From a bacterium (GTDB taxonomy: Bacteria > Patescibacteriota > Minisyncoccia > UBA6257 > 02-FULL-45-10c): 64,000 nucleotides of DNA. Shown one piece after another: positions 19,722-33,257 of this stretch. Numbering within the stretch: position 1 is the first letter of the stretch; each line of letters starts with the position of its first letter. Location: positions 2,236 through 66,235 of the forward strand of contig JAUSKP010000048.1 in assembly GCA_030646555.1 (NCBI GenBank), in the 5' to 3' direction. The notes beneath the pieces were generated by a model. That model saw only the letters and a program-made list of their open reading frames with translations, ran no database searches and had not been told where the DNA came from. Both the position numbers and the translations under genes were made by a program.

Positions 19722-19858
19722 TGGATCCCGCACATAACAAAGATAATTAATTTGTATGTGCAGATTCAAAAATAAAGTAATAAAGTCGTTTAAAATAATA
19801 ATTAATAAAAACAGAGAGTAAGAAAGCTTTGTTTTCAAATCTTTGTTATGTGCGGGAT
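19722..19858. repeat. perfect 20-bp inverted repeat (ATCCCGCACATAACAAAGAT / ATCTTTGTTATGTGCGGGAT) flanking ~97 nt of AT-rich DNA
   Basis: Arms at 19722-19741 and 19839-19858. The right arm overlaps the first possible start codon of the SIMPL gene. Confidence 0.7.
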
Positions 19859-20624
19859 GGATAATAATTTAGAATCATTAAAAAAATATTTTTGGCCTAT
19901 TTTAAACATATTATTAATAGTTTTGGTGATTTTGGGCATATTTTCAGTTAGCGCGTTGCGCCGGTATGTTGATACCACTTCTTCAAATCGCACGATCTCT
20001 GTTTCAGCTGAAGGCAAAACTGTGGTTACTCCGGACATAGCTAAGATTAATTTTTCTGTTGTGACCGAAGGCGCCGATACCGTTAAAATATCCGAAGAAA
20101 ATATTAAGAAAATGAATAAGGCCATTGATTTTGTAAAGTCGCAGGGGATCGGATCAAAAGATATCCAAACGGCAGGATACAGCCTTTCTCCAAAATATGA
20201 ATACAACGAAGATAAGAGGGAAAGTTTCATTAGCGGCTACACATTAACCCAGACCATCTATATTCAGATCCGTGATTTTTCAAAGATTAGCGGCATTTTA
20301 GGCGCGTTGCCCGGACTCGGCGTTAACAACATAAGCTCCCTGTCTTTTGCCATAGAAAACCAAGATGAAGCTTTGAAAGTTGCGCGTGATCAGGCTTTTG
20401 AGAAAGCTTTTGTAAAAGCCAGAGAAATGGCAAAACAAAATGGAGTAAGAATTAAAAGAGTGGTCACTTTTTCCGATTATCAAAACAATTACCCAATCTA
20501 CGCTAAAACAATGAGTTATGGAATCGGTGGAGGAGCGACCGATGAAGCAGTTCGGGCACCATCAATTGAGCCGGGTAGCCAAGAAGTGACCGTAAATGTG
20601 AGCATAACCTACGAAATAGATTAA
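19857..20624 (+). CDS. SIMPL (DUF541) domain periplasmic protein
   Basis: N-terminal TM/signal, then ISVSAEGK..V.PD.A...FSV..E.....A...N...M..A...VK..G....DIQT..YS..P.Y. Start at ATG 19857 because ATG 19848 lies inside the inverted-repeat arm. Confidence 0.65.
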   Translation: MDNNLESLKKYFWPILNILLIVLVILGIFSVSALRRYVDTTSSNRTISVSAEGKTVVTPDIAKINFSVVTEGADTVKISEENIKKMNKAIDFVKSQGIGSKDIQTAGYSLSPKYEYNEDKRESFISGYTLTQTIYIQIRDFSKISGILGALPGLGVNNISSLSFAIENQDEALKVARDQAFEKAFVKAREMAKQNGVRIKRVVTFSDYQNNYPIYAKTMSYGIGGGATDEAVRAPSIEPGSQEVTVNVSITYEID

Positions 20625-20627
20625 AAA

Positions 20628-21083
20628 ATGATAGCAAGATTTAGTAATTTGAAAGAAAGGTATCCTTTTATTCCTCAATTCATCAGATTCTTCCTTGTTG
20701 GAGCTATAAATACCGGAATAGATTTCGCGGTGCTGAATTTTCTTATTTTTTTTACCGAAAAAAGCAGCGGTGTTTACTATCCAGTTTTTAAATTTATTTC
20801 TTTTATGATTGCGGTCACCAATAGCTATTTTATGAATAAATATTGGACTTTCAAGTCCGATGATGCGTGCGGCGCAAAGCCTGGTGAATTTTTGAAGTTT
20901 TTGGGCGTTTATTTGGTTGGCGCAATAGTTAATGTCGGCGTTGCCACATATGTAGTAAATTACATTAGCGCCCCAATCGGATTTTCACCGGTCTTATGGG
21001 CGAATGTAGGGGCCTGTTTTGCAGTAGTGTTTACTCTTACTTGGAATTTCGTAGGTCTTAAATTTATAGTTTTTAAGAAATAA
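20628..21083 (+). CDS. GtrA-family membrane protein (polysaccharide synthesis/translocation associated)
   Basis: FIRFFLVGAINTGIDFAVLNFLIF N-terminal signature; 4 TM helices; 151 aa. Confidence 0.65.
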   Translation: MIARFSNLKERYPFIPQFIRFFLVGAINTGIDFAVLNFLIFFTEKSSGVYYPVFKFISFMIAVTNSYFMNKYWTFKSDDACGAKPGEFLKFLGVYLVGAIVNVGVATYVVNYISAPIGFSPVLWANVGACFAVVFTLTWNFVGLKFIVFKK

Positions 21084-21153
21084 ATTTAAACTTTAGTCCT
21101 TAGAAAATTGGAACGTGTTTTAAGATATATCTTATATGACGTTCTAAATTTGA

Positions 21154-21186
21154 CAAGAATGAGAAAATAGTGTATATTATACACTC
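21154..21186 (+). promoter_or_regulatory. sigma70-type promoter (TTGACA-17-TATATT) with overlapping palindromic operator AGTGTATA-T-TATACACT
   Basis: -35 TTGACA at 21154-21159, 17-nt spacer, -10 TATATT. An 8-bp perfect inverted repeat is centred on the -10. A near-identical module occurs at 29763-29800. Confidence 0.65.
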
Positions 21187-21231
21187 AAGTGAATTGTTCG
21201 TTCCAAATTCAGAAAAAGGAGATAAAAAAGA

Positions 21232-21369
21232 TGTCAGAACCGAAAAAAGAGCTGAGTAGCGAGGATCAGAAAAGCGAGGAGGCTTTTGCCGATCTGGTCT
21301 TTGCTAGCGAAAATGCGGTTATGGACAAAACCGGCTGGTTCGAAGTTCCGGTAAAGGCAGGGGAATAAG
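21232..21369 (+). CDS. small acidic protein (45 aa), hypothetical
   Basis: MSEPKKELSSEDQKSEEAFADLVFASENAVMDKTGWFEVPVKAGE. Strong RBS AAAGGAG 8 nt upstream, consensus promoter before it and a terminator after it. Below the ORF-track length cutoff. Confidence 0.45.
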
Positions 21370-21377
21370 TTTCAATA

Positions 21378-21412
21378 AAAGGGCGGATCTAATATGATTT
21401 CGCCCTTTTTTA
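21378..21412 (+). terminator. rho-independent terminator
   Basis: Stem AAGGGCG/CGCCCTT followed by TTTTTTATTT. Confidence 0.6.
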
Positions 21413-21466
21413 TTTGATGTTTTTAAGTTATAATCTTATTTAAGATTAGTAAAAAGAAAAAATTTA

Positions 21467-21577
21467 TGTCATTCCGGGCTCGACCCGGAATCCAGTCCGT
21501 CATTGCGAGCCCTAAAGGGGCGTGGCAATCTAATGAATTACTAGAGATTGCTTCGTCGCAGACTTCTCGCAATGACG
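21467..21577. repeat. composite palindromic element (A-unit, B-unit, spacer, inverted B-unit)
   Basis: TGTCATTCCGGGCTCGACCCGGAATCC + GTCATTGCGAGCCCTAAAGGGGCGTGGCAATC ... GATTGCTTCGTCGCAGACTTCTCGCAATGACG. Confidence 0.8.
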
Positions 21578-21606
21578 AAGATAATAATTAAAATTAGTAA
21601 AAATAT

Positions 21607-21921
21607 ATGAACTTAGATATTAAGGCAACAAATTTAGAATTAACTCCCGCTATTAAGCAGTATATTGAAACCAAAATTTCCGGGCTTTCCAAATTTTTAG
21701 AGAAATGGGAAAAATCCGGCAAAATAAACGTTAAATTTGAATTGGCCAGAACCACTAACCACCATAGCAAGGGTGAAGTTTTTTACGCTGAAATGAATCT
21801 TAATTTGGGAGAAAAAATGCTCCGCGCCGAACATTCAGCCGAGGATGCGTATAAAGCGATAGATAAAGTGAAAGACATAATGAAAGAAGAAATTATTGAG
21901 TTTAAAGAAAAGTCTGAGTAA
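21607..21921 (+). CDS. hpf: ribosome hibernation promoting factor / RaiA family (short form)
   Basis: MNLDIKATNLELTPAIKQYIETKISGLSKFL...YKAID.V; 104 aa. Confidence 0.85.
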   Translation: MNLDIKATNLELTPAIKQYIETKISGLSKFLEKWEKSGKINVKFELARTTNHHSKGEVFYAEMNLNLGEKMLRAEHSAEDAYKAIDKVKDIMKEEIIEFKEKSE

Positions 21922-21944
21922 AAATATAATACTCGTCATTGCGA

Positions 21945-22007
21945 TTGCCGCTGAAGCAATCTATTTTAATCACGAGATTGCCACGTCGCAGACTCCTCGC
22001 AATGACA
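21945..22007. repeat. composite palindromic element (B-variant + inverted B-unit) between hpf and secA
   Basis: GTCATTGCGATTGCCGCTGAAGCAATC ... GATTGCCACGTCGCAGACTCCTCGCAATGACAGA. Ends 10 nt before the secA ATG. Confidence 0.8.
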
Positions 22008-22016
22008 GAAAAATAA

Positions 22017-24365
22017 ATGTTTAACTTTTTTTCTTTTTTTGATCCGGTCAAGAAGCTTAAACCGGTTATTGAAAAAATAAATGATCTGGAAAAAGAAATA
22101 TCTTCTTTGAGCAATGAACAGCTTTTGGAAGAAAGCAAAAAACTTTTTGAAATAGAAATAGGCGAGAATGAATTGGTAAAAGGTTTTGCTTTAGTCAGAG
22201 AAACTGCCAAGAGAAATCTTGGCCAGCGTCATTTTGATGTCCAGCTGATGGGCGGCTTGGCGCTCCACGAAGGAAGAATTGCTGAAATGGCAACCGGTGA
22301 AGGAAAAACATTGGCTTCCACCGCGCCGATATATTTGAATGCGCTTTCCAAAAAAGGCGTTCACGTGGTAACCGTCAATGAATATTTAGCCAAAAGAGAT
22401 GCTGTTTGGATGGGCCAAATTTATCATGCTTTGGGGCTTTCTGTGGCTTGTTTGATCCACGAAGGCGCTTTGATGTATGACCCAAAATACATCTCTAAAA
22501 ACGCTGAAACGCTCATAGACAGGGAAAGGGACACAACCGGCAGTTTTATGGTGCAAGGCGAGTATTTAAGGCCAATTTCGCGCAAAGAAGCCTATTTAGC
22601 GGACATTACCTATGGCACAAACCATGAATTCGGCTTTGACTACCTAAGGGACAATTTAGCTTATTCTAGCGGAAACCAGGCGCAAAGAGGGCATAATTAT
22701 GTAGTAATTGATGAAATAGACAGCATTTTAATTGATGAAGCTAGGACCCCGCTTATTATTTCTGCTCCGGACGAAGAATCCAGCGATTTTTATAAGCAAT
22801 TTTCGCGCATAGTTTCCATGCTCAAAAAGGACGAGGATTATATAATTGACGAGAAAATGAAGTCGGCCGACATCACCGACGAAGGAATAAATAAAGTTGA
22901 AAAAGCTTTAAAGATAAAAAATCTTTATGATCCGGAAAATCTGAGACTGACCCGATATTTGCAGGAAACCCTGAAAGCTTACGGTTTGTTCAGGCGAGAC
23001 AAAGATTATGTGGTAAAAAATAATGAAGTAATTATCGTTGACCAGTTTACCGGCAGGCTTATGCCGGGCAGAAGATATTCCGGCGGATTGCATCAGGCCT
23101 TGGAGGCGAAAGAAAATGCGCAAGTTCAAAATGAATCCAGGACCTATGCGCAAATTACAATTCAAAATTATTTCAGGCTTTATAAAAAGATTGGGGGTAT
23201 GACCGGCACTGCCAGGACTTCAGCCGAGGAATTTGAAAAAGTATACGGACTGAAAGTTTTAAATATTCCGACCAATAAACCTTTGGCGAGAATTGATCAG
23301 CCAGACTTGATTTATAAAAACGAAGGCGCGAAATACAACGCCATTATTGAAGATGTTAAAGAAAGGCAAAAAATGGGTCAGCCGATACTCATCGGTTCAA
23401 TTTCTATAGAAAAAAATGAAATTTTGTCTAATTTGCTTAATAAATTCGGCGTGAGACACGAAATATTAAATGCTAAAAATCATGAACGTGAGGGCGCCAT
23501 TATTGCCCAGGCAGGAAGAGTCGGGGCCGTGACAGTCGCCACTAATATGGCGGGCCGTGGTGTAGATATTGTTCTTGGCGGCAATCCGGTGGATCCGGTA
23601 GAAAACCAAAAGGTAAAAGAATTGGGCGGACTCCACGTGATCGGCACGGAAAGGCACGAGGCTAGAAGAATTGACTATCAGCTTCAGGGACGAAGCGGAA
23701 GGCAGGGAGATCAAGGCTCATCCCAGTTTTTCCTTTCCTTGGAAGATGATCTTTTGCGTGTTTTTGGCGGAGAAAGAATTAAAAATTTAATGGAAAATTT
23801 TAATATCCCTGAAAATATGCCAATTGAATCGGGGATTGTGTCCAAAGCAGTTTCTCAAGCTCAAACCAAAATTGAAGGATTTAATTTTGACTCAAGAAAA
23901 AATTTGCTTGATTATGACGACATTTTAAATAAACAAAGACTCTCTGTTTATAAGAAACGCCAGGAAATGCTTGAAAAAAGTACTCATCCACAAATACTTT
24001 CTGTTTTAGATCTGTTTTGGATGAATCATTTGGAAAGTATGGAGGCCCTGCGGGAATCTGTGAGAATAAGGGCTTATGGCCAGCATGATCCGCTTGTTGA
24101 ATATCGCCGTGAAAGCCACGTTTTATATAGGCAGATGCTGGAGGGTTTTGAGAAATGGCTTGTTGAAAATAAAGAAAAAATTGAGGAAATGATTAAACAA
24201 CAAGCAGCCTCCTCTGTCATTCCCGCGAAAGCGGGAATCCAGGAAAAGAACTGGATTCCGGGTCAAGCCCGGAATGACAACAAGATGAATGGCCAAAAAG
24301 TTGGCAGAAATGATAATTGTCCATGCGGAAGCGGAAAAAAATACAAAAAGTGCCACGGAAAATAA
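22017..24365 (+). CDS. secA: preprotein translocase ATPase SecA with C-terminal zinc-binding tail and an in-frame repeat-encoded insertion
   Basis: DEAD-like motor motifs (MATGEGKT, VIDEIDSILIDEARTPLIIS), C-terminal CPCGSGKKYKKCHGK. Residues VIPAKAGIQEKNWIPGQARND are encoded by an A-family repeat pair. Confidence 0.9.
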   Translation: MFNFFSFFDPVKKLKPVIEKINDLEKEISSLSNEQLLEESKKLFEIEIGENELVKGFALVRETAKRNLGQRHFDVQLMGGLALHEGRIAEMATGEGKTLASTAPIYLNALSKKGVHVVTVNEYLAKRDAVWMGQIYHALGLSVACLIHEGALMYDPKYISKNAETLIDRERDTTGSFMVQGEYLRPISRKEAYLADITYGTNHEFGFDYLRDNLAYSSGNQAQRGHNYVVIDEIDSILIDEARTPLIISAPDEESSDFYKQFSRIVSMLKKDEDYIIDEKMKSADITDEGINKVEKALKIKNLYDPENLRLTRYLQETLKAYGLFRRDKDYVVKNNEVIIVDQFTGRLMPGRRYSGGLHQALEAKENAQVQNESRTYAQITIQNYFRLYKKIGGMTGTARTSAEEFEKVYGLKVLNIPTNKPLARIDQPDLIYKNEGAKYNAIIEDVKERQKMGQPILIGSISIEKNEILSNLLNKFGVRHEILNAKNHEREGAIIAQAGRVGAVTVATNMAGRGVDIVLGGNPVDPVENQKVKELGGLHVIGTERHEARRIDYQLQGRSGRQGDQGSSQFFLSLEDDLLRVFGGERIKNLMENFNIPENMPIESGIVSKAVSQAQTKIEGFNFDSRKNLLDYDDILNKQRLSVYKKRQEMLEKSTHPQILSVLDLFWMNHLESMEALRESVRIRAYGQHDPLVEYRRESHVLYRQMLEGFEKWLVENKEKIEEMIKQQAASSVIPAKAGIQEKNWIPGQARNDNKMNGQKVGRNDNCPCGSGKKYKKCHGK
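24215..24279. repeat. A-family repeat pair inserted in-frame in the secA 3' end
   Basis: TGTCATTCCCGCGAAAGCGGGAATCCAG...GGATTCCGGGTCAAGCCCGGAATGACA translates in the secA frame as SVIPAKAGIQEKNWIPGQARND. Confidence 0.8.
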
Positions 24366-24391
24366 TTTTAGGAAGTCCGACTTCCTAAATT

Positions 24392-24422
24392 AAAAACCTC
24401 CAAAATTTTGGAGGTTTTTTTG
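24392..24422. terminator. bidirectional rho-independent terminator between secA and the pilin-like gene
   Basis: Palindrome CCTCCAAAATTTTGGAGG followed by TTTTTTT and preceded by AAAAA. An additional hairpin AGGAAGTCCGACTTCCT lies at 24370-24386. Confidence 0.75.
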
Positions 24423-24431
24423 CTTCTAAAC

Positions 24432-26768
24432 TTACCTTATTTTTAATTTCAGTCCAGTAATTTCGGCTCTTAATTCTTCAATCTGTTTCTGCTGGTCTTG
24501 AATAGCGCCGGTCAAAATTGCTTCCATACCGGTTGGATTGTACCAATAGTATCCTTTATCATCTTGCGAGATCATTTCCGGAATAACATTTTTAACCTCT
24601 TGAGCAATAAATCCATACTTCAATCCCGGATTTGTGCCAAACTGGCTGTCGTGAAGCGCGTTCCATCTGTAAGAAACAGGGCGAAGAGCCATTATTTTAT
24701 TAAGAGACTCTCCTTTTAATTCACTATAAACATTTTTCCATCGCTGGTCAGAAGTGCTAGTCCAGGCAGTTCCCGTAGACAATCCGGCTGTTCCGACAAC
24801 ACTAAGCGCGTACGTCCCTGGCGCCGTCGTCCCAATGCCGACTTTGCCGGATGAATTTACCGTCAAAACATCACCCACTGAAGCATCGCTAACAGAAAAA
24901 TAATTCTTTCCTCCATTATAGTTTCCATAAGCGGAAGTTGGAGGCGTAAAATTAGCTGTCCATCTGGCAATCCCTTTGCTTACACGAACCTCATCTATTG
25001 CCCCGGTAAATCTTGACCCAGGGGCAGAGTCTGCGCCAAGGAAAAAGCCGGCGGTGGCGGCGTCATTGGTCGGAACCCCTGTTACGTCTTTAGTGTCTTG
25101 AAGTGCACCATCTATGTATAATTTTAGCGTGTTGCTTTGCCTAATAAAGGCGACGTGGTGCCAAGCATTATCACTGGTGTCCACCGTAGAGGTTACATCG
25201 TAGGCCGTCGCAGAGCTGTTCCAAATATACGCCCATAAATATTTCCCGCCGTAAATTTTCCAACTGGAACCGGCGCCGGTATTGTCTCCATATGCAATTA
25301 TAGGGTTAGTCCATTGACTATCCGTAGTAATCGCGCTTTTGTACCATAGATCTATAGTGAATTCGCCGCTTCCCATTTCATAGTCAACGTTATCCGTTGG
25401 TCCGGCAACATAGTCGCCTGTACCATCAAACAAAATAGAACCTGTCCCAAATTTTTGAAATGCTGTGTCAATTTGAGCGTCTGCTTGGCGCGTCATAGTT
25501 TTACTGGATTCATCGGTTATAGTAGCGGAACCGTCTGTTCCATTGGCATGGATAAGCGTTTTACTATAACTGTCATCCACACCTACTTCCGTAAATAATC
25601 CAGTATCGCGTCCTCTTACGTCAAGTGTTGATTCTGGTGTCGTCGTCCCTATGCCGACTTTGCCGGCAGTTGAAATAAATATCGTTGATGTTCCGACTGC
25701 GGTGTTTGCACTGCTAAAGTATGCAAGCTGGCCGGTAGAACCCGTCAAACTCGCGCTTCCGCCCGCGACACAAGTTCCATTTATGGCAAAACAGCCTCTT
25801 GCAACATCTATTCCGCCAGTTGAAGAAAAAGTAGATGTGGCAGTTGAAAAGTTTATGCCATTAGTATTTCCCACAGAAAACAAACTGCCGGGAGTCGTGG
25901 AGGAAATGCCGACGTTGCCGCCATTAGTGATGATTAAGTTAGTAGCCGTGGAAGAACCAATCACAAAAGCTGGACCGGTAATTCCGTTGGGATTGACAGA
26001 CAAAAGTCCCCATGGAGAAGAAGAGGCGATGCCAGTCTTGCCCTCTATTATCATTCCTGAAGTTGGCGCCGCGATAATGCCGTAAGTTGCTCCGACAGAA
26101 GCGCTGCCAGTTATACCCAGTTTGGACAGGGGCGCCGTATTTCCGATGCCGACACTACCACTTATATAAGCATTATTCCAAGGCAAAGCAGTAGTGCCGA
26201 TATCATAAAAAGTTGCGGCGCCGGGAATAAGATTAGAATCAAAAGTAGCGGCGGACACGCGGGCAATTGCCGAGCTTAAAGTGCGGGAAAAAGCGGATGC
26301 CGGATTAGTGGTGTTGTAGCTCAAAGTCAGATCAATTTGCACGGAATCATGCCCTGAATATCCGGAAACTTTTAAAAAGTTAACTGCGTCGGCAACAACA
26401 CTGCTATTGGTAAGCGGTTGGGGAGTGCCGTTAGCTTCTTCTTTATAAACTATGCCGTTTAAAATATAAAATTCCGTAGGATTTTTGGTATCGTCTTTAA
26501 ATCTCAAAACTAAAGTGGAGGTGGAAGTGCCGGCGTCTATATCAATGACAGAAGAATCCCTAATAGATCTCTGCATATTTTGCAGGGTGAAATTAAGCTG
26601 TTCATTGACTTCTATGACGGCAGTTTGCCTGCTTTTAATTTTTGTAGTGTCAATCAGAACGCCGGATAAAACTGCTCCTGTGGCGCCTAAGATGGCGGTA
26701 TAAATTAAAACTTCCATGAGGGTAAAACCACCTATTTTTTTATTTGTAGTCATAGATATATTATACAA
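24432..26768 (-). CDS. type IV pilin-like protein with tail-fibre-like repeats, LamG-like domain and C-terminal S74 intramolecular-chaperone (auto-cleaving) domain
   Basis: N-terminal class-III signal KKIGG|FTLMEVLI with Glu at +5. Gly/Ser/Thr-rich repeats of the GKVGIGTTTPESTLDVRG type. LamG-like segment (WHHVAFIRQSNTLKLYIDG...AIDEVRVSKGIARW). C-terminal ...STSDQRWKNVYSEL...LRPVSYRWN...GFIAQEVKNVIPEM...IQDQQKQIEELRAEI matches the phage tail-spike/endosialidase chaperone domain. Confidence 0.8.
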   Translation of the reverse strand: MYNISMTTNKKIGGFTLMEVLIYTAILGATGAVLSGVLIDTTKIKSRQTAVIEVNEQLNFTLQNMQRSIRDSSVIDIDAGTSTSTLVLRFKDDTKNPTEFYILNGIVYKEEANGTPQPLTNSSVVADAVNFLKVSGYSGHDSVQIDLTLSYNTTNPASAFSRTLSSAIARVSAATFDSNLIPGAATFYDIGTTALPWNNAYISGSVGIGNTAPLSKLGITGSASVGATYGIIAAPTSGMIIEGKTGIASSSPWGLLSVNPNGITGPAFVIGSSTATNLIITNGGNVGISSTTPGSLFSVGNTNGINFSTATSTFSSTGGIDVARGCFAINGTCVAGGSASLTGSTGQLAYFSSANTAVGTSTIFISTAGKVGIGTTTPESTLDVRGRDTGLFTEVGVDDSYSKTLIHANGTDGSATITDESSKTMTRQADAQIDTAFQKFGTGSILFDGTGDYVAGPTDNVDYEMGSGEFTIDLWYKSAITTDSQWTNPIIAYGDNTGAGSSWKIYGGKYLWAYIWNSSATAYDVTSTVDTSDNAWHHVAFIRQSNTLKLYIDGALQDTKDVTGVPTNDAATAGFFLGADSAPGSRFTGAIDEVRVSKGIARWTANFTPPTSAYGNYNGGKNYFSVSDASVGDVLTVNSSGKVGIGTTAPGTYALSVVGTAGLSTGTAWTSTSDQRWKNVYSELKGESLNKIMALRPVSYRWNALHDSQFGTNPGLKYGFIAQEVKNVIPEMISQDDKGYYWYNPTGMEAILTGAIQDQQKQIEELRAEITGLKLKIR

Positions 26769-26782
26769 TAATATTAGGTTAA

Positions 26783-26836
26783 GGAATATAGAATTTAGAA
26801 TATTGAATATAGAATAGGAATAGAGAATGTTGAATT
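26783..26836. repeat. AT-rich GAATATAGAAT-type low-complexity repeat (inverted copy at 27236-27275; similar motif at 34088-34135)
   Basis: AGAATATTGAATATAGAATA here versus the reverse complement of 27245-27270 (AGAATATTGAATACAGAATA) gives 19/20 identity. The two copies flank the four-helix-bundle gene. Confidence 0.5.
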
Positions 26837-27225
26837 TAAGATTCGTATCTTTTCTGGCGAGTAGCTTGCAATAAGCCTGTAAGAAGTTTATTGGCTATAA
26901 TTGATTGCTCAGCGCATTCGTCAAAATATTCTTTTGATAAATAACCAACATCCTTAGCAATTAAAAGCTGGTTTTGAAGCTCAGTCATTGAACCCTTAGC
27001 GTTGCTGTAGAAATAATGTTTTTCTTTTGAGGACCTTCTGCTAAAACCCTCGGCAATATTAGAAGTAAAAGAAACTACAGCTCTTCTCATTTGATCTGTG
27101 AGTCCATATTTTTCTTCTGAAGGAAAGTTTTTAGTTTCCTTATAAATCATCAAAACTAGTTTGTGTCCTTCCTGCCAAACTAATAAATCGGTAAATCTTT
27201 GAATTTTCTTAATTTCCTTATTCAT
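26836..27225 (-). CDS. four-helix-bundle protein (23S rRNA IVS-protein family, TIGR02436-like)
   Basis: 129 aa; LLVWQ....L...IY..T..FP..E.YGLTDQMRRA..S...NIAEGF.R.S..E...F...A.GS..E; family assignment from memory of the conserved pattern. Confidence 0.6.
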   Translation of the reverse strand: MNKEIKKIQRFTDLLVWQEGHKLVLMIYKETKNFPSEEKYGLTDQMRRAVVSFTSNIAEGFSRRSSKEKHYFYSNAKGSMTELQNQLLIAKDVGYLSKEYFDECAEQSIIANKLLTGLLQATRQKRYES

Positions 27226-27235
27226 AGTTTTAGTT

Positions 27236-27275
27236 TTTTATTCTATATTCTATATTCTGTATTCAATATTCTCAT
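27236..27275. repeat. inverted partner of the 26783-26836 AT-rich repeat
   Basis: TTCTATATTCTATATTCTGTATTCAATATTCTC; see the 26783-26836 feature. Confidence 0.5.
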
Positions 27276-27970
27276 TATACCCCAGAGGGGTCCGTGAAAA
27301 AGATAACCAAAGTTTTAAAAAGAATTTTAATATCTAGCCATAAAGACTGATTTTCCAAATAATATTTGTCGTATTCTAATTCCTTAAGAAAGGGGAGTCC
27401 TGAAGCGCCATTCACTTGAGATAGGCCGGTCAAGCCCGTTTTTGCCGCAAGAAGCTCGCGATATTCTCTGGGGTAAGCAAATAGTTCTTCCGGTTCGTGC
27501 GGCCTTGGGCCGACCAAAGAAAGCTCTCCTTTTAAAACATTTATTAATTGCGGAAGCTCATCTAATCTGAATTTTCTTAAAAACCTGCCAACTTTTGTAA
27601 TGCGGGGATCATTTTTTATCTTAAAGAATGGCCCGTCCTTGCGCTCATTTAAGCTTAATAAATCTTTCTTTTGTTTTTCAGCGCCTAAAACCATGGATCT
27701 GAATTTATACACTTTGATTATTTTTCCTTCGCTTATTCTGTCTAGTTTTATTAAAATCGGACTATTTGTCATTTTTGCGAAAAATCCCCCTTCATCCCCC
27801 TTTATAAAGGGGGAAAGAGGGGGATTAGGATTTGTTAATATTTGGGACATCGGAAGTCCAAGAAAAGAATCCATTTTTATGGCCAGCGCGATGAACGGAA
27901 AGAACGGAAGCAAAATAATTAGACCTATTAATGAGCCAAGTATGTCAATTAGTCTTTTTATGATAAACAT
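27275..27970 (-). CDS. initiating sugar transferase (bacterial sugar transferase / WbaP-WcaJ C-terminal domain family) with in-frame palindrome insertion
   Basis: N-terminal TM, KVYKFRSM, LSLVGPRPHEPEE..., LTGLSQVNG signature. Extra segment FLGLPMSQILTNPNPPLSPFIKGDEGG between the conserved AIK.DS and FF...KFRSM positions. Confidence 0.8.
   Translation of the reverse strand: MFIIKRLIDILGSLIGLIILLPFFPFIALAIKMDSFLGLPMSQILTNPNPPLSPFIKGDEGGFFAKMTNSPILIKLDRISEGKIIKVYKFRSMVLGAEKQKKDLLSLNERKDGPFFKIKNDPRITKVGRFLRKFRLDELPQLINVLKGELSLVGPRPHEPEELFAYPREYRELLAAKTGLTGLSQVNGASGLPFLKELEYDKYYLENQSLWLDIKILFKTLVIFFTDPSGV
27783..27826. repeat. 44-nt nested perfect palindrome inside the sugar transferase coding region
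   Basis: AATCCCCC-ttcat-CCCCCTTTATAAAGGGGG-aaaga-GGGGGATT. The reverse complement translates in-frame to NPPLSPFIKGDEGG. Confidence 0.85.
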
Positions 27971-27992
27971 TTTTTAATTATATACTATTATT

Positions 27993-28192
27993 GTTAATAA
28001 TTTTAAATTACAAATTTTAAATTTTTAATCAATACCCAATTACTAAATTTAAATGAATAAACAAAAACAAGGAAGGGTTTACGGGTCTATGTTATAATTT
28101 TGAAATCAAAAAAGATGAAATAAATGTTAGAACCTGTTTTTAAATTTAGATATTACTGTTTTAAAATTGATTTAAAATTTGTAATTTTAAAT
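27993..28192. repeat. inverted AT-rich repeats (TTTAAATTACAAATTTTAAA / TTTAAAATTTGTAATTTTAAA) bracketing the divergent promoter region between the sugar transferase and GT4 genes
   Basis: Arms at 27993-28013 and 28172-28192. An extended -10 TGTTATAAT at 28091-28099 lies between them. Confidence 0.45.
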
Positions 28193-28206
28193 TTAATATT
28201 TATTAT

Positions 28207-29685
28207 ATGCGCGTTGCAATCATTCACGATTATCTAAATCAATATGGCGGAGCGGAAAGAGTACTTGAAGCTTTTTGCGAGCTTTTTCCTGATGCGCCAA
28301 TCTATACTCTTTTTTACGATGAGGAAAAAACACTCGGGAGATTTAAAGACAAGGATATTAGAACAAGTTTTTTGGATATGAACTGGATTGCCACGTCTCA
28401 CCTGTCCGAAGCTTTACGCGAAGGAGGGTCGCAGGCTTTCCCGATTGCAAAGCAATCGAGGATCCTCGATAAAGTCGGGACTCGCAATGACAGAAAGGGG
28501 GAACTGGATTCCCGCTTTCGCGGGAATGACAGAGAGATTGCTTCGGCGCAGACTTCTCGCAATGACGGAATGGAAGCGGGAATAGTGGAAAAGAAAGGCG
28601 GAATCTTTCATAAATTTGTAATAAATAATCACAGGCTTTTTATCCCGCTAATGCCTATCGCCGCTTCGCTTATGAAAGTTGACGATGACTACGATGTGGT
28701 TTTATCTTCTAGCGCCGGATTCGGAAAGGGGATGAGAGTCGGGAAAAACACTATCCATATTTCTTATTGCCATACGCCCCTGCGTTACGCCTGGGAACAT
28801 TACAAATATTTTAATTGGCAAACTTATTTAAAAATTTTATCTGCCCCGGCTTTTTGGTATTTAAGAATATGGGATAAGTGGGTTGGACGAAAACCGCAAA
28901 AACTAATCGCCAATTCCAAATATATCTCCGAAAAAATAAAAAAATATTATAAAAGAGAGGCGGAAGTAATTTATCCGCCGGTAGATACCGAAAAATTCTG
29001 CGTCAAACCGAAAGTCAAAAAAGGGGATTATTTTTTGGCTGTCGGCAGGCTTATTCACTACAAAAAATTTGACCTGATCATTCGGGCATTCAATAAATTG
29101 AATTTGCCGCTTTTAATAATCGGCAATGGTCCGGAATTGGAAAATTTAAAACAATTAGCTAAATCCCCCCGCCTTCGCCCCGACTTCGCGAATGTTTCGC
29201 CGGGCAAACAAGGCTCCCTCCTTCGCCAAGGCTATGGCGGGCAAGCTGGCGGGCAAAGTAAAATAGAGTTTTTAACTTCCATAACCGATGAGCAATTAAT
29301 TCTTTTATATAATGGCGCGCAAGCTTTTATTTTTCCTCAGGTAGAAGATTTTGGACTGGTGGCCGCTGAAGCGCAGGCTTGCGGAACGCCGGTAATAGCC
29401 CTAAACCAAGGCGGTGGAAGAGAAATAGTTGAAGACGGCAAAACCGGCATTTTGTTTAACAATCAAAATGTAGATGATCTGATTATGGCGGTAAAAAGAT
29501 TCACCCTGTTAAATAATTTCGCTTTTAGAGAAATTCCCGCAAGAGCGGGATTTAACAGGGTAAAAATAAAGCAATTTGACCAAAAATTGATCCGTGAATC
29601 TGCGCTGCGATTTTCTAAAAATAAATTTAAAAAAGCGATATTGAAGGCGGTTTATGAAGCAAGGAATGCGTCATCCCGTACTTGA
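28207..29685 (+). CDS. GT4-family glycosyltransferase carrying repeat-derived in-frame insertions
   Basis: N-terminal MRVAIIHDYLNQYGGAERV, C-terminal GT-B motifs (E..G....EA.ACG.PVIA). Two internal segments and the C-terminal NASSRT-stop are encoded by A/B/C-family repeat units. Confidence 0.8.
   Translation: MRVAIIHDYLNQYGGAERVLEAFCELFPDAPIYTLFYDEEKTLGRFKDKDIRTSFLDMNWIATSHLSEALREGGSQAFPIAKQSRILDKVGTRNDRKGELDSRFRGNDREIASAQTSRNDGMEAGIVEKKGGIFHKFVINNHRLFIPLMPIAASLMKVDDDYDVVLSSSAGFGKGMRVGKNTIHISYCHTPLRYAWEHYKYFNWQTYLKILSAPAFWYLRIWDKWVGRKPQKLIANSKYISEKIKKYYKREAEVIYPPVDTEKFCVKPKVKKGDYFLAVGRLIHYKKFDLIIRAFNKLNLPLLIIGNGPELENLKQLAKSPRLRPDFANVSPGKQGSLLRQGYGGQAGGQSKIEFLTSITDEQLILLYNGAQAFIFPQVEDFGLVAAEAQACGTPVIALNQGGGREIVEDGKTGILFNNQNVDDLIMAVKRFTLLNNFAFREIPARAGFNRVKIKQFDQKLIRESALRFSKNKFKKAILKAVYEARNASSRT
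28385..28585. repeat. tandem B-long, A and B repeat units inserted in-frame in the GT4 gene (about 67 aa)
   Basis: GATTGCCACG...CTCGCAATGACA (109 nt), then GGATTCCCGCTTTCGCGGGAATGACA, then GATTGCTTCGGCGCAGACTTCTCGCAATGACGG. Encodes ...LDSRFRGNDREIASAQTSRNDG.... Confidence 0.85.
29163..29258. repeat. C-family GC-rich hairpin repeat inserted in-frame in GT4 (encodes SPRLRPDFANVSPGKQGSLLRQGYGGQAGGQS)
   Basis: CCGCCTTCGCC...CTCCTTCGCCAAGGCTATGGCGGGCAAGCTGGCGGGCAAAG resembles the 32694-32749 and 33205-33235 units. Interrupts the conserved GT-B region between LKQLAK and KIEFL. Confidence 0.7.
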
Positions 29686-29758
29686 TACGGGATCCAGGTC
29701 GAGGACTGGATTCCAAATCAAGTTTGGAATGACAGAGGGAGAAATGCTCGCAATGACA
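29669..29758. repeat. composite A/A/B-remnant element overlapping the GT4 stop codon
   Basis: GTCATCCCGTACTTGATACGGGATCC (the GT4 TGA stop lies in the hairpin loop) ... GGATTCCAAATCAAGTTTGGAATGACA ... GCTCGCAATGACAGA. Confidence 0.8.
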
Positions 29759-29764
29759 GAAAAT

Positions 29765-29799
29765 TTGACAAATAGGTGAAATTAGTGTATTTTATACAT
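29765..29799 (+). promoter_or_regulatory. sigma70-type promoter with operator-like palindrome, sibling of 21154-21186
   Basis: TTGACAAATAGGTGAAATTAGTGTATTTTATACAT; about 30/38 identity to the 21153 module, including the GTGTAT.TTATACA core. Confidence 0.6.
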
Positions 29800-29827
29800 A
29801 GTTCATTCAACCTTTAGGAGGGGAAAA

Positions 29828-30082
29828 TTGATAGAAACAATAAAAGAAGAAGAGGTAAAGATAAATACCAAGAGCGGGATTGTCGGAAAAACAATAAGCG
29901 AAATTGAGAAAGAATTCCAGGTTTGCATAGTGGAATTAAAAAATCTCAGCGATCGCGCATTCGTGTTTTCGTGGGAGGAAAAACCTGAAAAATCCACAAC
30001 TATCAAACCGGAAGACGAGATAGTTGTTTCCGGAGAACCGTTGAATATCAAGCAGTTTTCCAAGGCCGCCTCTCTGAATTAA
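29828..30082 (+). CDS. stand-alone TrkA-C (RCK C-terminal)-like domain protein, TTG start
   Basis: 84 aa; G.IVGKTISEIE....V.IV.....R.......P...I..GD.I.V.G; RBS AGGAGGGG upstream; followed by a strong terminator. Confidence 0.5.
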   Translation: MIETIKEEEVKINTKSGIVGKTISEIEKEFQVCIVELKNLSDRAFVFSWEEKPEKSTTIKPEDEIVVSGEPLNIKQFSKAASLN

Positions 30083-30088
30083 GAGAAG

Positions 30089-30128
30089 CACCCCCTCACT
30101 CATATAGAGTGAGGGGGTTTTATTTTTA
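30089..30128 (+). terminator. rho-independent terminator
   Basis: CACCCCCTCACTC-atatag-AGTGAGGGGGT followed by TTTATTTTTAT. Confidence 0.8.
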
Positions 30129-30155
30129 TATCATTTTTCTTCCTTTCTGTTTGTT

Positions 30156-30298
30156 TGTCATTCCTGCGAAAGCAGGAATCCATGTTTTTAGTTCATAATC
30201 TCTGGATTCCGGGTCAAGCCCGGAATGACAGATATGAGTAGATTGCTTCCTCCTTCGCATGGCTTCGGACGGACAAGTCGGCGGCACTCGCAATGACG
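30156..30298. repeat. composite palindromic element (A fwd, A rev, B-long rev with internal C hairpin)
   Basis: TGTCATTCCTGCGAAAGCAGGAATCC ... GGATTCCGGGTCAAGCCCGGAATGACA ... GATTGCTTCCTCCTTCGCATGGCTTCGGACGGACAAGTCGGCGGCACTCGCAATGACGG. Confidence 0.8.
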
Positions 30299-30362
30299 GA
30301 AAGACAACAAAAATGACATAGAGAAACTTCATTTTTTGTTCATTTTAAGTTAAAATCTATAA

Positions 30363-32192
30363 ATGTTAGAAAATATCAGAAATTTCTGTATAATCGCGCA
30401 TATTGACCACGGCAAATCCACATTAGCCGATAGACTTTTGGAATTCACCGGCACGATTGAAAAGAGAAAAATGAAAGCCCAATATCTGGACCAAATGGAT
30501 CTTGAAAGAGAACGCGGTATTACCATTAAAATGACACCGGTCCGGATGAAATATAAGTATAATGATACTGAGTACACCCTTAACTTAATTGATACCCCGG
30601 GGCACAGCGATTTTTCCTATGAAGTTTCCCGCGCTTTAGCGGCGGTAGACGGCGCTATTTTACTAGTAGACGCTTCCCAGGGAATACAAGCCCAAACATT
30701 GGCCAACTATAATCATGCTAAAAAAGCAGGACTAAAAATAATCGGCGCCATAAACAAAATAGATCTGAATCCGTACGGGGTGGAAGAAATAGCAAAAAGC
30801 ATCAGTGAATTAACCGGGGAAAATCCGGATGATATCCTAAAAGTTTCGGGTAAAACCGGCCAGGGCGTGGAAGAGCTTTTAAAGGTAGTGATAGAAAAAA
30901 TTCCTGCTCCTAAAAAAGCTTTGATCTCGGAAAAGATCTTTGATAAGGATATTTTTCAGGCTTTGATATTCGATTCTTTTTATCATGAACATAAAGGCAT
31001 CGTTGCCAATGTCAGAGTCTTTAACGGATCCTTAAAAAGAGAAGGCGAGGCATATTTGGTTGCCGCTCAGAATAAATTCAAAGTAAAAGAGCTCGGACAT
31101 TTTTCTCCAGAATTAAAAAATGATGAGATCATAGAAGCCGGACAGATTGGCTATATTGCCACAGGACTTAAAGATCCGGAGATCTTGAAAATAGGCGACA
31201 CTATAATCAGCAGTGATCAGAGGCTAACAGAAGAAGATGTGAGATCACTGGCGCTTTCCGGCTATAAGGACCCTCAGCCGGTTGTTTTCGTGTCTTTCTA
31301 TCCGGACGAAGCTGATGATTACGAAAATTTAAAAACCGCTTTGGGAAAATTGAAACTAAATGATTCCGCGCTTAAATTTGAAGCGGACTTTAATGAATTT
31401 CTGGGAAGGGGATTCAAGGGCGGATTTTTAGGAAGACTTCACTTTGAAATAACCGCCGAAAGACTTGAACGTGAATTTAATTTACGAACCGTAAACAGCT
31501 TTCCATCTGTTTCTTATAAAGTTAAAACCAGGAATGAGAAATGGATAACTGTGGACACGCCCAAAGATTTTCCAGAAGATCACCTAGAAGTATTGGAGCC
31601 TTTGGCAAACATTGAAATAATAACCCCATCAAATTATTTAGGCGCGGTTTTGGGGTTGCAGCAAAGTTTTAAATTAAGAGATATAAACACCCGCTCTCTA
31701 GGAAATTCTGTAATTTTAGACGGGATTTTGCCAGTTGCCGAACTTATCAGGGATTTTGATGACCAATTAAAATCTGTTTCGGCTGGATACGCTTCATTAA
31801 GTTATGAGGTTTCCGGTTATAAAAAAGCTCAAGTGGTAAAACTGGAAATTTTAGTTGCCGAACATAACATTGGCGGACTCACGCGCATTGTTTATAAAGA
31901 TGATATGGATAGGGAAGCCAGAAAAACCGTGGAAAGACTAAAAGAACTTTTGCCCGCTCAACAATTTTCTCAAGCTATACAAGCCACTATCGGAAGCAAA
32001 ATCATTGCCAGAGAAACTATTCCGGCTATGAAAAAAGAGCTTGGTAATTTCGGAAAAAATGGCGGAGACAGGACCAGGAAAATGAAGCTCTGGAAAAAAC
32101 AGCAAAGGGGCAAGGAACGGCTTAAAGAAAGGGGCATTAAGAGTAAAATAGATATTCCGGCTAGGATATTTAAAGAATTACTGAAGAAATAG
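30363..32192 (+). CDS. lepA: elongation factor 4 (LepA)
   Basis: NFCIIAHIDHGKSTLADRLL; G-domain motifs DTPGH, NKID; LepA-specific C-terminal domain; 609 aa. Confidence 0.9.
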   Translation: MLENIRNFCIIAHIDHGKSTLADRLLEFTGTIEKRKMKAQYLDQMDLERERGITIKMTPVRMKYKYNDTEYTLNLIDTPGHSDFSYEVSRALAAVDGAILLVDASQGIQAQTLANYNHAKKAGLKIIGAINKIDLNPYGVEEIAKSISELTGENPDDILKVSGKTGQGVEELLKVVIEKIPAPKKALISEKIFDKDIFQALIFDSFYHEHKGIVANVRVFNGSLKREGEAYLVAAQNKFKVKELGHFSPELKNDEIIEAGQIGYIATGLKDPEILKIGDTIISSDQRLTEEDVRSLALSGYKDPQPVVFVSFYPDEADDYENLKTALGKLKLNDSALKFEADFNEFLGRGFKGGFLGRLHFEITAERLEREFNLRTVNSFPSVSYKVKTRNEKWITVDTPKDFPEDHLEVLEPLANIEIITPSNYLGAVLGLQQSFKLRDINTRSLGNSVILDGILPVAELIRDFDDQLKSVSAGYASLSYEVSGYKKAQVVKLEILVAEHNIGGLTRIVYKDDMDREARKTVERLKELLPAQQFSQAIQATIGSKIIARETIPAMKKELGNFGKNGGDRTRKMKLWKKQQRGKERLKERGIKSKIDIPARIFKELLKK

Positions 32193-32201
32193 TCTTTTTT
32201 C

Positions 32202-32352
32202 TGTCATTCCGCACTTGTCGCCGAAGTCATCGCTATGCGAGATCTGGCGAAGCCAGACAATCTATCTATCTGTCATTGCGAGGGCTTTGGCCCGCGGCAA
32301 TCTATCTTATTATGGATTGGATTGCCACGTCGCGGACTCCTCGCAATGACAG
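32202..32352. repeat. composite palindromic element (A-long, B, inverted B) immediately 3' of lepA
   Basis: TGTCATTCCGCACTTGTCGCCGAAGTCATCGCTATGCGAGATCTGGCGAAGCCAGACAATC, TGTCATTGCGAGGGCTTTGGCCCGCGGCAATC, GATTGCCACGTCGCGGACTCCTCGCAATGACAGA. Confidence 0.8.
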
Positions 32353-32379
32353 AGAATATGATAAAATTAGAGGATAATA

Positions 32380-32670
32380 ATGAAAAATATTATAAATATT
32401 TTATTAATCGCGGTTATAGGTTTTTTAGGCTGGCAGTTTTTTAATTTATACATTAAGAATATTTCTTTAGAAAAATCGTCAAATAAATTAAATGCTGAAA
32501 TTTTTTCAATAAAGGCGGAAAATAAAGATCTCGTTTCAGATACCAACTATTTTTCTAATCCGGAAAATCAGGTGAAAGAAATAAAAAGCCAAACAAATTA
32601 CAAAGACCCAGGAGAAAAAGTGATCATTATAATTCCTCCGGCAACGGCAACGAGTACCGCCAATCAATAG
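32380..32670 (+). CDS. small single-TM protein with coiled-coil (FtsB/DivIC-like septum protein candidate)
   Basis: 96 aa; TM IINILLIAVIGFLGWQFF, then a heptad-like region ...LNAEIFSIKAENKDL. Weak call. Confidence 0.4.
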   Translation: MKNIINILLIAVIGFLGWQFFNLYIKNISLEKSSNKLNAEIFSIKAENKDLVSDTNYFSNPENQVKEIKSQTNYKDPGEKVIIIIPPATATSTANQ

Positions 32671-32693
32671 TAAATGTTAAAATAATTAGTGAT

Positions 32694-32749
32694 CCATCCT
32701 TCGCTGTTTCAGCGGGCTTGCCCGCCGAAGCCAGCTATGGCTGGCAAAG
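32694..32749. repeat. C-family GC-rich hairpin repeat abutting tRNA-Gly
   Basis: CCATCCTTCGCTGTTTCAGCGGGCTTGCCCGCCGAAGCCAGCTATGGCTGGCAAAGGCGGG, with nested stems CCCGCC/GGCGGG and GCCAGC/GCTGGC. Confidence 0.65.
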
Positions 32750-32820
32750 GCGGGATTAGTACAATGGTAGTACGCGACCTTCCCAAGGTTGAGACGCGAG
32801 TTAGATTCTCGTATCCCGCT
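32750..32820 (+). tRNA. tRNA-Gly (anticodon CCC), atypical T-loop
   Basis: Acceptor GCGGGAT/ATCCCGC is a perfect 7 bp; D-arm GTAC-AATGGTA-GTAC; anticodon arm CGACC-TTCCCAA-GGTTG. The T-loop is TTAGATT with A where the conserved C56 should be, so it could be degenerate. Confidence 0.5.
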
Positions 32821-32942
32821 CGCTTTGAGAATAATTCTTCTTTGGTAATGGGACGCTGGTTAAGACAGGGATCCGACCGCGCCCCGCACTCAGCTTCGCT
32901 GTAGTGCTGGGGCTCCCGTTACCCGCTCATAGTTAGATAAAA

Positions 32943-33015
32943 GCCACCTTAGCTCAGCTGGTAGAGCAATGCTTTCGTAAAGCAGAGGTCCCCGGTTCAA
33001 TCCCGGGAGGTGGCT
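32943..33015 (+). tRNA. tRNA-Thr (anticodon CGT)
   Basis: Acceptor GCCACCT/AGGTGGC is a perfect 7 bp; D-arm GCTC-AGCTGGTA-GAGC; anticodon loop TTCGTAA; T-arm CCCGG-TTCAATC-CCGGG; no encoded CCA. Confidence 0.8.
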
Positions 33016-33047
33016 CTGAAAAATGATACTATGAATATATGGCAGTT

Positions 33048-33067
33048 CCCTGCCTGCCGGCAGGCAG
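33048..33067. repeat. perfect 20-nt palindrome CCTGCCTGCCGGCAGGCAGG downstream of tRNA-Thr
   Basis: Self-complementary; possible tRNA 3' processing or terminator hairpin. Confidence 0.5.
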
Positions 33068-33164
33068 GAATTCTGGCAGGGGGCTCCGAAATAAAAAAAC
33101 AAATGACAAATTTCTAATATCTAATCAAATCCAAAATTCAAACAACAAAATTTTTAAACAAGAG

Positions 33165-33257
33165 TGTCATTCCCGCGAAAGCGGGAATCCAGAAAACCTA
33201 GATTCCGCATCCCTCCGCCGCAAGGCTTCGGACGGGCAAGCAAGTGCGGAATGACAG
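33165..33257. repeat. composite palindromic element (A fwd + A-long rev with internal C hairpin) upstream of prfB
   Basis: TGTCATTCCCGCGAAAGCGGGAATCC ... GATTCCGCATCCCTCCGCCGCAAGGCTTCGGACGGGCAAGCAAGTGCGGAATGACAGA. Confidence 0.8.

Follow-up and report, generated by a model that had tools for sequence, protein, structure and literature searches.

Why should a bacterial glycosyltransferase measure 492 aa when its nearest relatives, proteins of the Patescibacteria (Candidate Phyla Radiation, CPR), measure ~360 aa (~358-370 aa)? The question is raised by a family 4 glycosyltransferase (GT4) gene in a 64-kb stretch of a Patescibacteriota genome (assembly GCA_030646555.1, contig JAUSKP010000048.1, positions 2,236 to 66,235 of the forward strand), hereafter termed the window, whose numbering is used throughout unless a relative's locus is named. 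The answer is probably that small mobile DNA hairpin repeats have invaded an otherwise intact GT4 gene on four occasions. A preliminary description of the stretch had proposed that repeat-derived DNA is read in frame in this gene and supplies its stop codon, which alignments and repeat matches confirmed; it counted three repeat-derived segments and missed insert 3, one of the four insertion sites now recognised. The gene and its inserts are listed below, with repeat units lettered A, B and C, GT4 orthologs labelled P0002 and so on, and relatives' loci labelled L002 and so on.

28207..29685, plus strand: GT4 (GT-B fold) glycosyltransferase host gene, 492 aa, defined by its open reading frame (ORF), Pfam, orthologs and AlphaFold2 (AF2)/Foldseek
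28378..28608, plus strand: insert 1, 231 nt, 77 aa, residues 58-134; absent from P0004 and P0006
28385-28491: B-long unit of insert 1, whose loop holds a reversed C core (~28395-28428) and small hairpins
28388..28585, plus strand: spurious out-of-frame ORF, 65 aa, a product of stop-poor repeats
28414..28632, minus strand: spurious antisense ORF, 72 aa, a product of the repeats
28504..28531, minus strand: A unit of insert 1, its minus strand reading TGTCATTCCCGCGAAAGCGGGAATCCAG; a match to the Ssn-related motif (SRM), with 1 mismatch to the consensus of the Neisseria Transformation Sequence (NTS)
28536-28566: B unit of insert 1
29170..29259, plus strand: insert 2, 90 nt, residues 322-351 (RLRPDF...GGQS), GC 0.66
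29344..29370, plus strand: EX7E motif EDFGLVAAE (E380...E388), the conserved GT4 signature, intact
29503..29562, plus strand: insert 3, 60 nt, residues 433-452, TLLNNFAFREIPARAGFNRV; a hairpin element
29669..29760, plus strand: 3' composite, 92 nt, giving codons 489-492 (SSRT) and the TGA; fold z=-3.8
29669-29697, sense strand: CGTC-tagged SRM hairpin CGTCATCCCGTACTTGATACGGGATCCAG, which starts CGTCAT and contains the TGA at 29683-29685
29706-29734: inverted partner in the 3' composite
~29747-29757: truncated B end of the 3' composite

The encoded protein is identical to GenBank MDO8443115.1, recorded as 'MAG: glycosyltransferase [bacterium]' and derived from one 77-kb contig of one metagenome-assembled genome (MAG). 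Pfam searches returned Glycos_transf_1 (PF00534, E=1.6e-30, in two stretches) and Glyco_transf_4 (PF13439, E=1.2e-9), with insert 2 falling inside the PF00534 region of the alignments. The AF2 model has a mean predicted local distance difference test score (pLDDT) of 84.7 and a predicted template modelling score (pTM) of 0.82, with 355 residues at pLDDT >=90, and Foldseek matched it to MshA, BshA, HepE and PimA with probability 1.00; the two Rossmann-like domains of the GT-B fold are thus recovered by model and structural search alike. Profile matches and predicted structure together identify the host as a GT4 glycosyltransferase of the GT-B fold. Its relatives share a common gene order, namely a Bac_transf sugar transferase (encoded on the other strand), then GT4, a TrkA_C protein and LepA, and this synteny marks the ~360-aa proteins as true orthologs.

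Against these orthologs the additional DNA stands out clearly. Protein alignments of 21 and 113 sequences, together with a DNA alignment of GT4 with six ortholog genes and a further set of relatives from metagenomes (n=7), were used for comparison. Most orthologs are empty at the insertion sites; equivalent loops in repeat-free homologs, which would have spoken against the preliminary description, were thus not found. The internal inserts (231, 90 and 60 nt) are all multiples of 3 with 0 stops in the frame used, against a background of 0.0565 stops per codon (window, all frames), and no frameshift or stop was found across the four GT4 inserts. Both EX7E glutamates (E380, E388) are invariant over the 113 orthologs, and every invariant column is retained in GT4, which deviates at 1/135 columns conserved at >=90% (ortholog median 2). 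Its dN/dS against orthologs is ~0.05, equal to the value between insert-free orthologs. The preliminary description had left open whether about 100 extra residues are tolerated or the gene is being degraded; the excess comes to ~130 residues, and the enzyme core carries no visible damage, so that sequence and model favour tolerance by an enzyme that is presumably still active.

The mapping onto an AF2 model that the same description had suggested gave a consistent picture, the inserts corresponding to low-confidence stretches between confident elements. Low model confidence occurs only at residues 76-126, ~321-351 and ~441-458, that is, at the inserts, whose pLDDT is 32-57 apart from 82 at the start of insert 3 (<50 at residues 76-126 of insert 1, and 47-55 across insert 2); confident secondary-structure elements flank each of them. 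The positions therefore appear compatible with the fold, and the inserts probably form surface loops. Placement was read from the secondary-structure string and knowledge of the Rossmann fold, not from distances: insert 1 would follow strand beta3 in a link of the N-terminal Rossmann domain, insert 2 would lie in a helix-to-strand link of the C-terminal domain that faces away from the nucleotide site, and insert 3 in the link before the terminal helices.

What, then, is the inserted DNA? The hairpin families of the window share the ends GGAT(T/C)...(A/G)ATGAC, or GTCAT...ATCC on the opposite strand, and 20 GGAT..ATGAC units were observed where shuffled sequence gives 4.4. Their stems vary yet stay complementary (CCCGC/GCGGG, CCGGG/CCCGG, CCAAA/TTTGG, CCGTA/TACGG). 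The core layout consists of a (C/T)GTCAT tag, a short stem-loop of variable stem and an ATCCAG tail, and units of this family stand alone, pair up as inverted doublets or take a 'long' form with a GC-rich core in the loop. B units have the same ends and a longer stem-loop. In the 'long' units at 30244-30290 and 33207-33250, the loop is occupied by the GC-rich C core. Fold z-scores range from -3.8 to -8.6 across the folded elements, the inverted doublet of an NTS-like unit and its partner recurs at seven loci, and the A unit is open in 5/6 frames.

Two literatures bear on these units. The NTS, CGTCATTCCCGCGMAVGCGGGAATCYRG, encompasses the dRS3 repeat, and a degenerate SRM was defined in the same study (PMC11893778). 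The 'CGTC-tagged REPs' (repetitive extragenic palindromes) group dRS3 (= CGTC-1), RPE-4 and RPE-6 (Rickettsia palindromic elements, RPEs) of Rickettsia conorii and many others into numerous stem/loop sub-families, mostly as inverted dimers or clusters, for which no dedicated transposase was known in 2013 (Di Nocera et al., 2013; PMC3733652). Copies within genes are read in frame and yield 20-30 aa from a dimer or 43-82 aa from a cluster; certain ORFs have been struck twice, and ~10% of intragenic copies lie at ORF ends (PMC3733652). Applied to the window, the published SRM pattern found 4 sites against 0.05 expected. Three of the four share one and the same 28-mer, TGTCATTCCCGCGAAAGCGGGAATCCAG, which differs from the NTS by 1 mismatch and stands at 24215-24242, 28504-28531 and 33165-33192; two of the four lie in GT4, as the A unit (antisense) and as the CGTC-tagged hairpin at the stop codon (sense). 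The B, C and insert 3 units do not fit the SRM pattern. Fit to the motif, variable but complementary stems, and multicopy enrichment in inverted dimers and clusters place the A-type units, by sequence, in the CGTC-tagged REP/SRM class. In the preliminary description, the NTS/dRS3-like, CGTC-tagged character of the A type (PMC3733652, PMC11893778) had escaped recognition.

The motif is not confined to this genome. A search for GTCATTCC-stem-loop-stem-GGAATCCAG, made in one genome of each species, returned at least 120 loci, and the matches listed include Nitrospirota, Bradyrhizobium, Dehalococcoidia, Methylococcales, several Patescibacteria and others. The cross-phylum stems have a perfect 4 bp in 46/139 of the matches listed, most others pairing at 3/4. 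In a Chromatiaceae contig (L077, 5434-6047), the hairpin motif occurs five times at a regular spacing of ~146 nt, with eight copies in 6.5 kb, forming a tandem array.

Insert 1 is a nested array in which an A unit, a B unit and a decayed tail of 40 nt follow a B-long unit. The long B/A/B tandem earlier read at 28385-28585 holds as a parse, while the extra DNA is larger (28378-28608, 231 rather than ~200 nt). The C core within its B-long unit was recovered by a profile match (E=2.6e-5), and the A unit is translated as ELDSRFRGND; peptides derived from inserts in GT4 include ELDSRFRGNDR and QGYGGQAGGQSK. The out-of-frame ORFs that had been ascribed to the repeats (28388-28585, plus strand, and 28414-28632, minus strand) do exist at this insert. 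When the 77-aa peptide was used as a query for other decorated proteins, no usable candidates were returned.

Comparison of orthologs marks site 1, by sequence, as an insertion hot spot at which differing hairpin arrays occupy one codon boundary. The site is filled in 12/113 orthologs, by a 21-nt palindrome, a single B unit, a B unit with tail, or a three-unit array, always at the same codon boundary; P0002, P0016, P0003, L137, P0005 and P0010 hold hairpin contents other than those of insert 1. The tail KKGGI[FI]H is common to insert 1 of GT4, P0002/L132 and L137, which implies common descent or exchange for this subset. On a rough neighbour-joining tree, the empty, palindrome, single-unit and array states are patchily spread, and a single ancestral origin of the site-1 insert accordingly finds no clean support.

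Insert 2 differs in character. Its GC fraction of 0.66 compares with a window average of 0.376, and it was found in none of the 112 aligned orthologs and in none of the seven further metagenome relatives. A C-family unit had been placed at 29163-29258; an extra 90 nt is indeed present, at 29170-29259, but its membership in the C family is weak. Against a profile built from the three other C copies, it was the best non-training match, though only with E=0.16; it also lacks a significant hairpin fold of its own (z=-0.5), which rules out a hairpin. It probably represents two diverged C cores without hairpin termini.

Insert 3 is a very stable hairpin (DNA fold -20.3 kcal/mol, z=-8.6). It has terminal inverted repeats (TIRs) ACCCTGTTAAAT / ATTTAACAGGGT of 12-15 nt around an inner stem-loop, ATTCCCGC-AAGA-GCGGGAT, and its arms at 29500-29514 and 29550-29564 are 93% complementary. 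Like insert 2, it was found in none of the seven further metagenome relatives. In another Patescibacteria MAG, the gene of a RecG-like helicase (L051, 216-314) carries an in-frame element with the termini of insert 3 and a different interior, located between GTHALIQEDI and KFKNLALVIIDEQHRFGV of the protein.

At the 3' end, the claim that the C-terminal residues and the TGA lie inside a hairpin stood unchanged: codons 489-492 and the TGA at 29683-29685 fall within 29669-29697. In the ortholog P0004, the gene end GCAAGATAG immediately precedes TTGACAAATAG, a conserved promoter-like box for the next gene, and in the window the same TTGACAAATAG box lies directly downstream of the composite; the composite has therefore displaced the native GT4 stop. 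P0005 has the same first hairpin at its 3' end, and its protein ends ...VSSRI*. No target-site duplication flanks any of the four GT4 inserts in the DNA alignment.

Two further features of these 3' ends may be mentioned. Promoter-like boxes at 29761-29798 and 21146-21183 are 84% identical (AAATTTGACAA...AGTGTAT(A/T)TTATACA), each standing before a small gene; the one after GT4 survived insertion of the 3' composite just upstream and is kept in orthologs with readable downstream sequence (P0004, L133, P0003, and as a variant in P0002). In P0010 and P0006, the GT4 3' ends (L128 ~7080-7400, L129 ~2880-3230) are broken by a ~290-nt element with terminal inverted repeats AGAACCTCTCTCAATAAYAAT / ATTATTGAGAGAGGTTCCT, which adds RTSLNNNS and a stop; in L129, the original last codons (EARDAG*) are located after this element.

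Is GT4 alone in this respect? The window's 12 repeat clusters, formed by hairpins of the GTCAT, C and TIR types, are all confined to 19572-33255, i.e., 13.7 kb of 64 kb (P ~4e-7), and none was found in the other 50 kb of the window, ribosomal-protein region included. Six of the 12 are in coding sequence and six are intergenic. The repeat-rich stretch surrounds envelope-related genes, namely those of a pilin-like protein, SecA, a sugar transferase and GT4. Besides GT4, the in-frame inserts of SecA and the sugar transferase were compared with orthologs. The intergenic clusters and these two inserts are as follows.

19572-19603: intergenic cluster
21468-21576: intergenic cluster
21935-22007: intergenic cluster
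24214..24282, plus strand: in-frame inverted doublet in SecA (NTS-like unit and partner), read as VIPAKAGIQEKNWIPGQARND; z=-4.9
27764..27865, minus strand: in-frame insert of ~34 aa in the Bac_transf sugar transferase gene (27275-27970); z=-4.1
30157..30296: intergenic cluster of an A unit, an inverted partner of A, and a B-long unit with C core
32197-32350: intergenic cluster
33165-33255: intergenic cluster

The SecA doublet sits in the linker just before the SEC-C zinc motif; the SecA of L002 holds a different array at the same site, plus an extra insertion within the zinc motif. The Bac_transf insert combines a mini GTCAT...ATCC unit with a 44-nt C/G palindrome, which recurs intergenically in L002 at 10390-10428. 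Here again the site is filled differently in L002, whose own sugar transferase bears another insert; the window's insert is absent from the aligned L001 and L006, and the L128 and L129 products (200 aa) are too short for it. In L002, LepA (EF4) measures 640 aa against 609 and carries an in-frame hairpin doublet (7884-7945) of 34 aa between GTPase motifs G2 and G3. One and the same unit is given different readings, LDSRFRGND in GT4 and VIPAKAGIQ in SecA.

Adjoining the repeat-rich locus, the minus-strand gene at 24432-26768 encodes the pilin-like protein, 778 aa with a type IV pilin-like N-terminal methylation motif, LamG and a Peptidase_S74 chaperone domain. A 23S_rRNA_IVP/Avd-like four-helix-bundle gene (26836-27225, minus strand) varies in position among relatives.

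These findings suggest how the enlarged gene came about. Multicopy hairpins have inserted at the DNA level without target-site duplication and have stayed in frame; selection would retain only stop-free copies of 3n length in permissive places, here the links that hold inserts 1, 2 and 3 and the very C-terminal end, where four codons and the new stop come from the element. Retention would be easy because the units are GC-rich and stop-poor. The encoded peptides would be disordered surface decorations, and a specific function for them is improbable because the frame and orientation in which the unit is read vary from gene to gene.

Several observations weigh against this account of an intact gene carrying mobile hairpins. 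The likeness of insert 2 to other repeat copies is weak (E=0.16). Inserts 2 and 3 are known from only one assembly, so that their age and accuracy rest on a single MAG contig. The dS values of ~1-2 are saturated, and pairwise dN/dS integrates a long divergence; a very recent inactivation would therefore be compatible with the low ratio. The beta3 side of a GT-B N-domain usually faces the acceptor site, and the 77-aa loop of insert 1 on that side could impair function. Finally, the 64-kb window yielded neither a cognate nuclease nor a transposase, and we therefore only infer the transposition or repair by which the units would move here. An Ssn/GIY-YIG gene was sought in the window by regular expression, by phmmer with the Ssn of L042 and by Pfam on 20 ORFs (14 of them small), without a hit, and no Y1 transposase was found among the scanned ORFs.

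Outside the window, a bona fide Ssn flanked by motifs was found only in the alphaproteobacterial locus L042. In a CPR MAG of candidate division Kazan, a GTCATTCC...GGAATCC hairpin stands 2 kb away from a truncated GIY-YIG ORF of 47 aa (L101, 3256-3399), in which Pfam recognises just the N-terminal half (E=5e-6); this fragment may be the remnant of an Ssn-like gene, and a search with it for full-length CPR Ssn genes yielded no candidates. The ORF at 21607-21921 in the window, which is flanked by repeats in an 'NTS-gene-NTS' layout, was considered as an Ssn and turned out to be the ribosome hibernation factor HPF (PF02482).

The concentration of hairpins at an envelope locus and their turnover at fixed sites invite a bolder proposal. 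The hairpins might be targeted to fixed intragenic positions, turn over there as 'intragenic mosaic elements' and, with an Ssn-type nuclease, set recombination breakpoints inside genes of presumably competent bacteria, the likeness to the NTS then reflecting horizontal spread of nuclease and motif across phyla. Differing arrays at the same codon boundary of GT4, SecA and the sugar transferase in sister genomes, and the envelope-locus concentration, would fit targeting; such a targeted mode with an Ssn-linked recombination role is doubtful and unsupported so far.

An exapted role is similarly unlikely, if a little more so. Here, the loops would serve the protein, by binding membrane or partner or by setting linker length, or the hairpins would act as Ssn-type nuclease sites that limit or pattern recombination in the cell-envelope locus. 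The confinement of 12/12 clusters to 13.7 kb near the pilin-like protein, SecA, the sugar transferase and GT4 recalls the Neisseria NTS clusters beside surface-protein genes (PMC11893778), the 28-mer is near-identical to the NTS, and site 1 holds differing arrays in many orthologs. But most orthologs are empty at the GT4 insert sites, the frames and orientations used differ between genes, the insert peptides are predicted to be disordered, and no Ssn gene lies in the window, the truncated fragment of the Kazan MAG being its sole sign in the CPR.

That GT4 is a young pseudogene, in which four insertions signal relaxed selection and the frame survives since the units are stop-poor, we consider improbable, and slightly more so than exaptation. 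Four insertions in one gene are unusually many, repeat units open in most frames would preserve the frame by themselves, inserts 2 and 3 are unique to this lineage, and saturated dS would hide a recent relaxation. Yet the internal inserts are all of 3n length, and the used frame of insert 1 has 0 stops in 77 codons where the other two sense frames have 2 and 4. Nor is there an excess of core substitutions (1/135 columns against a median of 2), and indispensable genes hold similar inserts (SecA here, LepA in the relative L002). Related site-1 arrays, moreover, stay in frame in the diverged P0002/L132, L137, P0016 and P0003.

Mis-joined or expanded arrays in the assembly, around a real gene free of inserts, are very unlikely. 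In their favour, only one contig of one MAG has yielded the protein, and identical 28-mers stand at three loci. Against them, the sequence on either side of each insert aligns collinearly with orthologs, no insertion shifts the frame, and homologous inserts at site 1 and the 3' end recur in independent assemblies of other samples. Least credible of all are introns or inteins whose removal would leave a mature enzyme of ~360 aa, for even though each insert lies between conserved blocks and has strong secondary structure, 60-231 nt or 20-77 aa is far under intron or intein sizes, a Rfam gathering scan of the window gives only 3 tRNAs, Pfam finds no intein (Hint) domain on GT4, and the same units are common in intergenic DNA. 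A known structured RNA was also considered for the region and rejected, Rfam being empty there.

The reading of the gene as intact and colonised by mobile hairpins can be set beside known systems. Protein-coding palindromes are best known from Rickettsia, and the mode seen here is like theirs; it is not that of a GTAG REP, a classical MITE (miniature inverted-repeat transposable element), an intron or an intein. As with RPE-1, to the extent that the summary in PMC10969869 describes it (Ogata et al., 2000/2002), mobile palindromes lie in frame in unrelated functional genes, insert-free orthologs exist, and positions are judged compatible with the fold; in-frame inserts with insert-free orthologs were found here for GT4, SecA, Bac_transf and the LepA of L002. 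Unlike RPE-1, which that summary gives as ~100-150 bp with a conserved peptide in one frame, the modules here are 25-110 nt, arrayed, and read in several frames and orientations. The link to RPEs is indirect, running through the classing of RPE-4/6 as CGTC REPs (PMC3733652).

The CGTC-tagged REPs themselves offer another comparison. The hairpin at the GT4 stop codon begins CGTCAT, and stem-loops, in-frame copies, dimers and clusters are shared. The differences are that the host is a Patescibacteria/CPR bacterium, outside the five phyla of PMC3733652; that most copies here carry TGTC rather than CGTC; that four separate sites lie in one 1.5-kb gene and half of the window's clusters are intragenic; and that a GC-rich core sits inside the loop of 'long' units. 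With the NTS/SRM and its GIY-YIG single-stranded DNA nuclease SsnA (Nat Commun, 2025; PMC11893778), the units share the near-identity of TGTCATTCCCGCGAAAGCGGGAATCCAG and CGTCATTCCCGCGMAVGCGGGAATCYRG (1 mismatch) and non-random clustering near envelope genes. Here the likeness is one of sequence, no ssn gene having been found in the 64-kb window, and 6/12 clusters are intragenic, compared with 2% of copies in N. meningitidis (PMC11893778).

REPINs (REP doublets) are essentially extragenic. Like them and like bacterial interspersed mosaic elements (BIMEs), the units here seem to recur as inverted doublets (seven loci), form mosaic arrays and leave no target-site duplication; unlike GTAG REPs with their REP-associated tyrosine transposase (RAYT), they bear the tag (C/T)GTC, and no Y1 transposase was found in the scanned window ORFs. 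Insert 3 resembles intragenic MITEs (ERIC/RU; Delihas, 2007; PMC2759123; reviewed in PMC10969869) in its TIRs and in standing in frame in two unrelated genes of two genomes. It differs in having only 60 nt, no visible target-site duplication and no identified parent insertion sequence, and because target-site duplication is missing it is not a classical MITE. In-frame hairpin repeats were thus already known in Rickettsia and other bacteria; what is new is the phylum of the host, the repeat density, the nesting of 'long' units and the turnover at a hot spot.

The locus extends protein-coding palindromes to the ultra-small bacteria of the CPR. The very short intergenic regions of CPR genomes may drive mobile hairpins into genes (6/12 clusters in coding sequence, against 2% for the Neisseria NTS). 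For annotation, this means that CPR proteins can bear repeat-derived decorations of 20-80 aa and that stop-poor repeats yield spurious ORFs, both of which inflate 'hypothetical protein' counts and distort length-based orthology. Because a near-NTS 28-mer occurs in the CPR and the motif in many phyla, the Ssn family has candidate substrates far outside Pseudomonadati, and the spread of the motif across phyla is now a testable question. For protein engineering, the four sites are natural examples of places in a GT-B enzyme that seem to accommodate large insertions.

Elsewhere in the window, at 52164-52201 and 54684-54721, another short hairpin repeat, TTCTCCGCCAGAGGCGGATCTGCCTTGGGCGG..., distinct from those above, lies in frame in the genes of ScpA and phosphoglycerate kinase (PGK). 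ScpA reads FSARGGSALGG and PGK reads FSTRGGSAFGW, following the pattern S(A/T)RGGSA(L/F)G.

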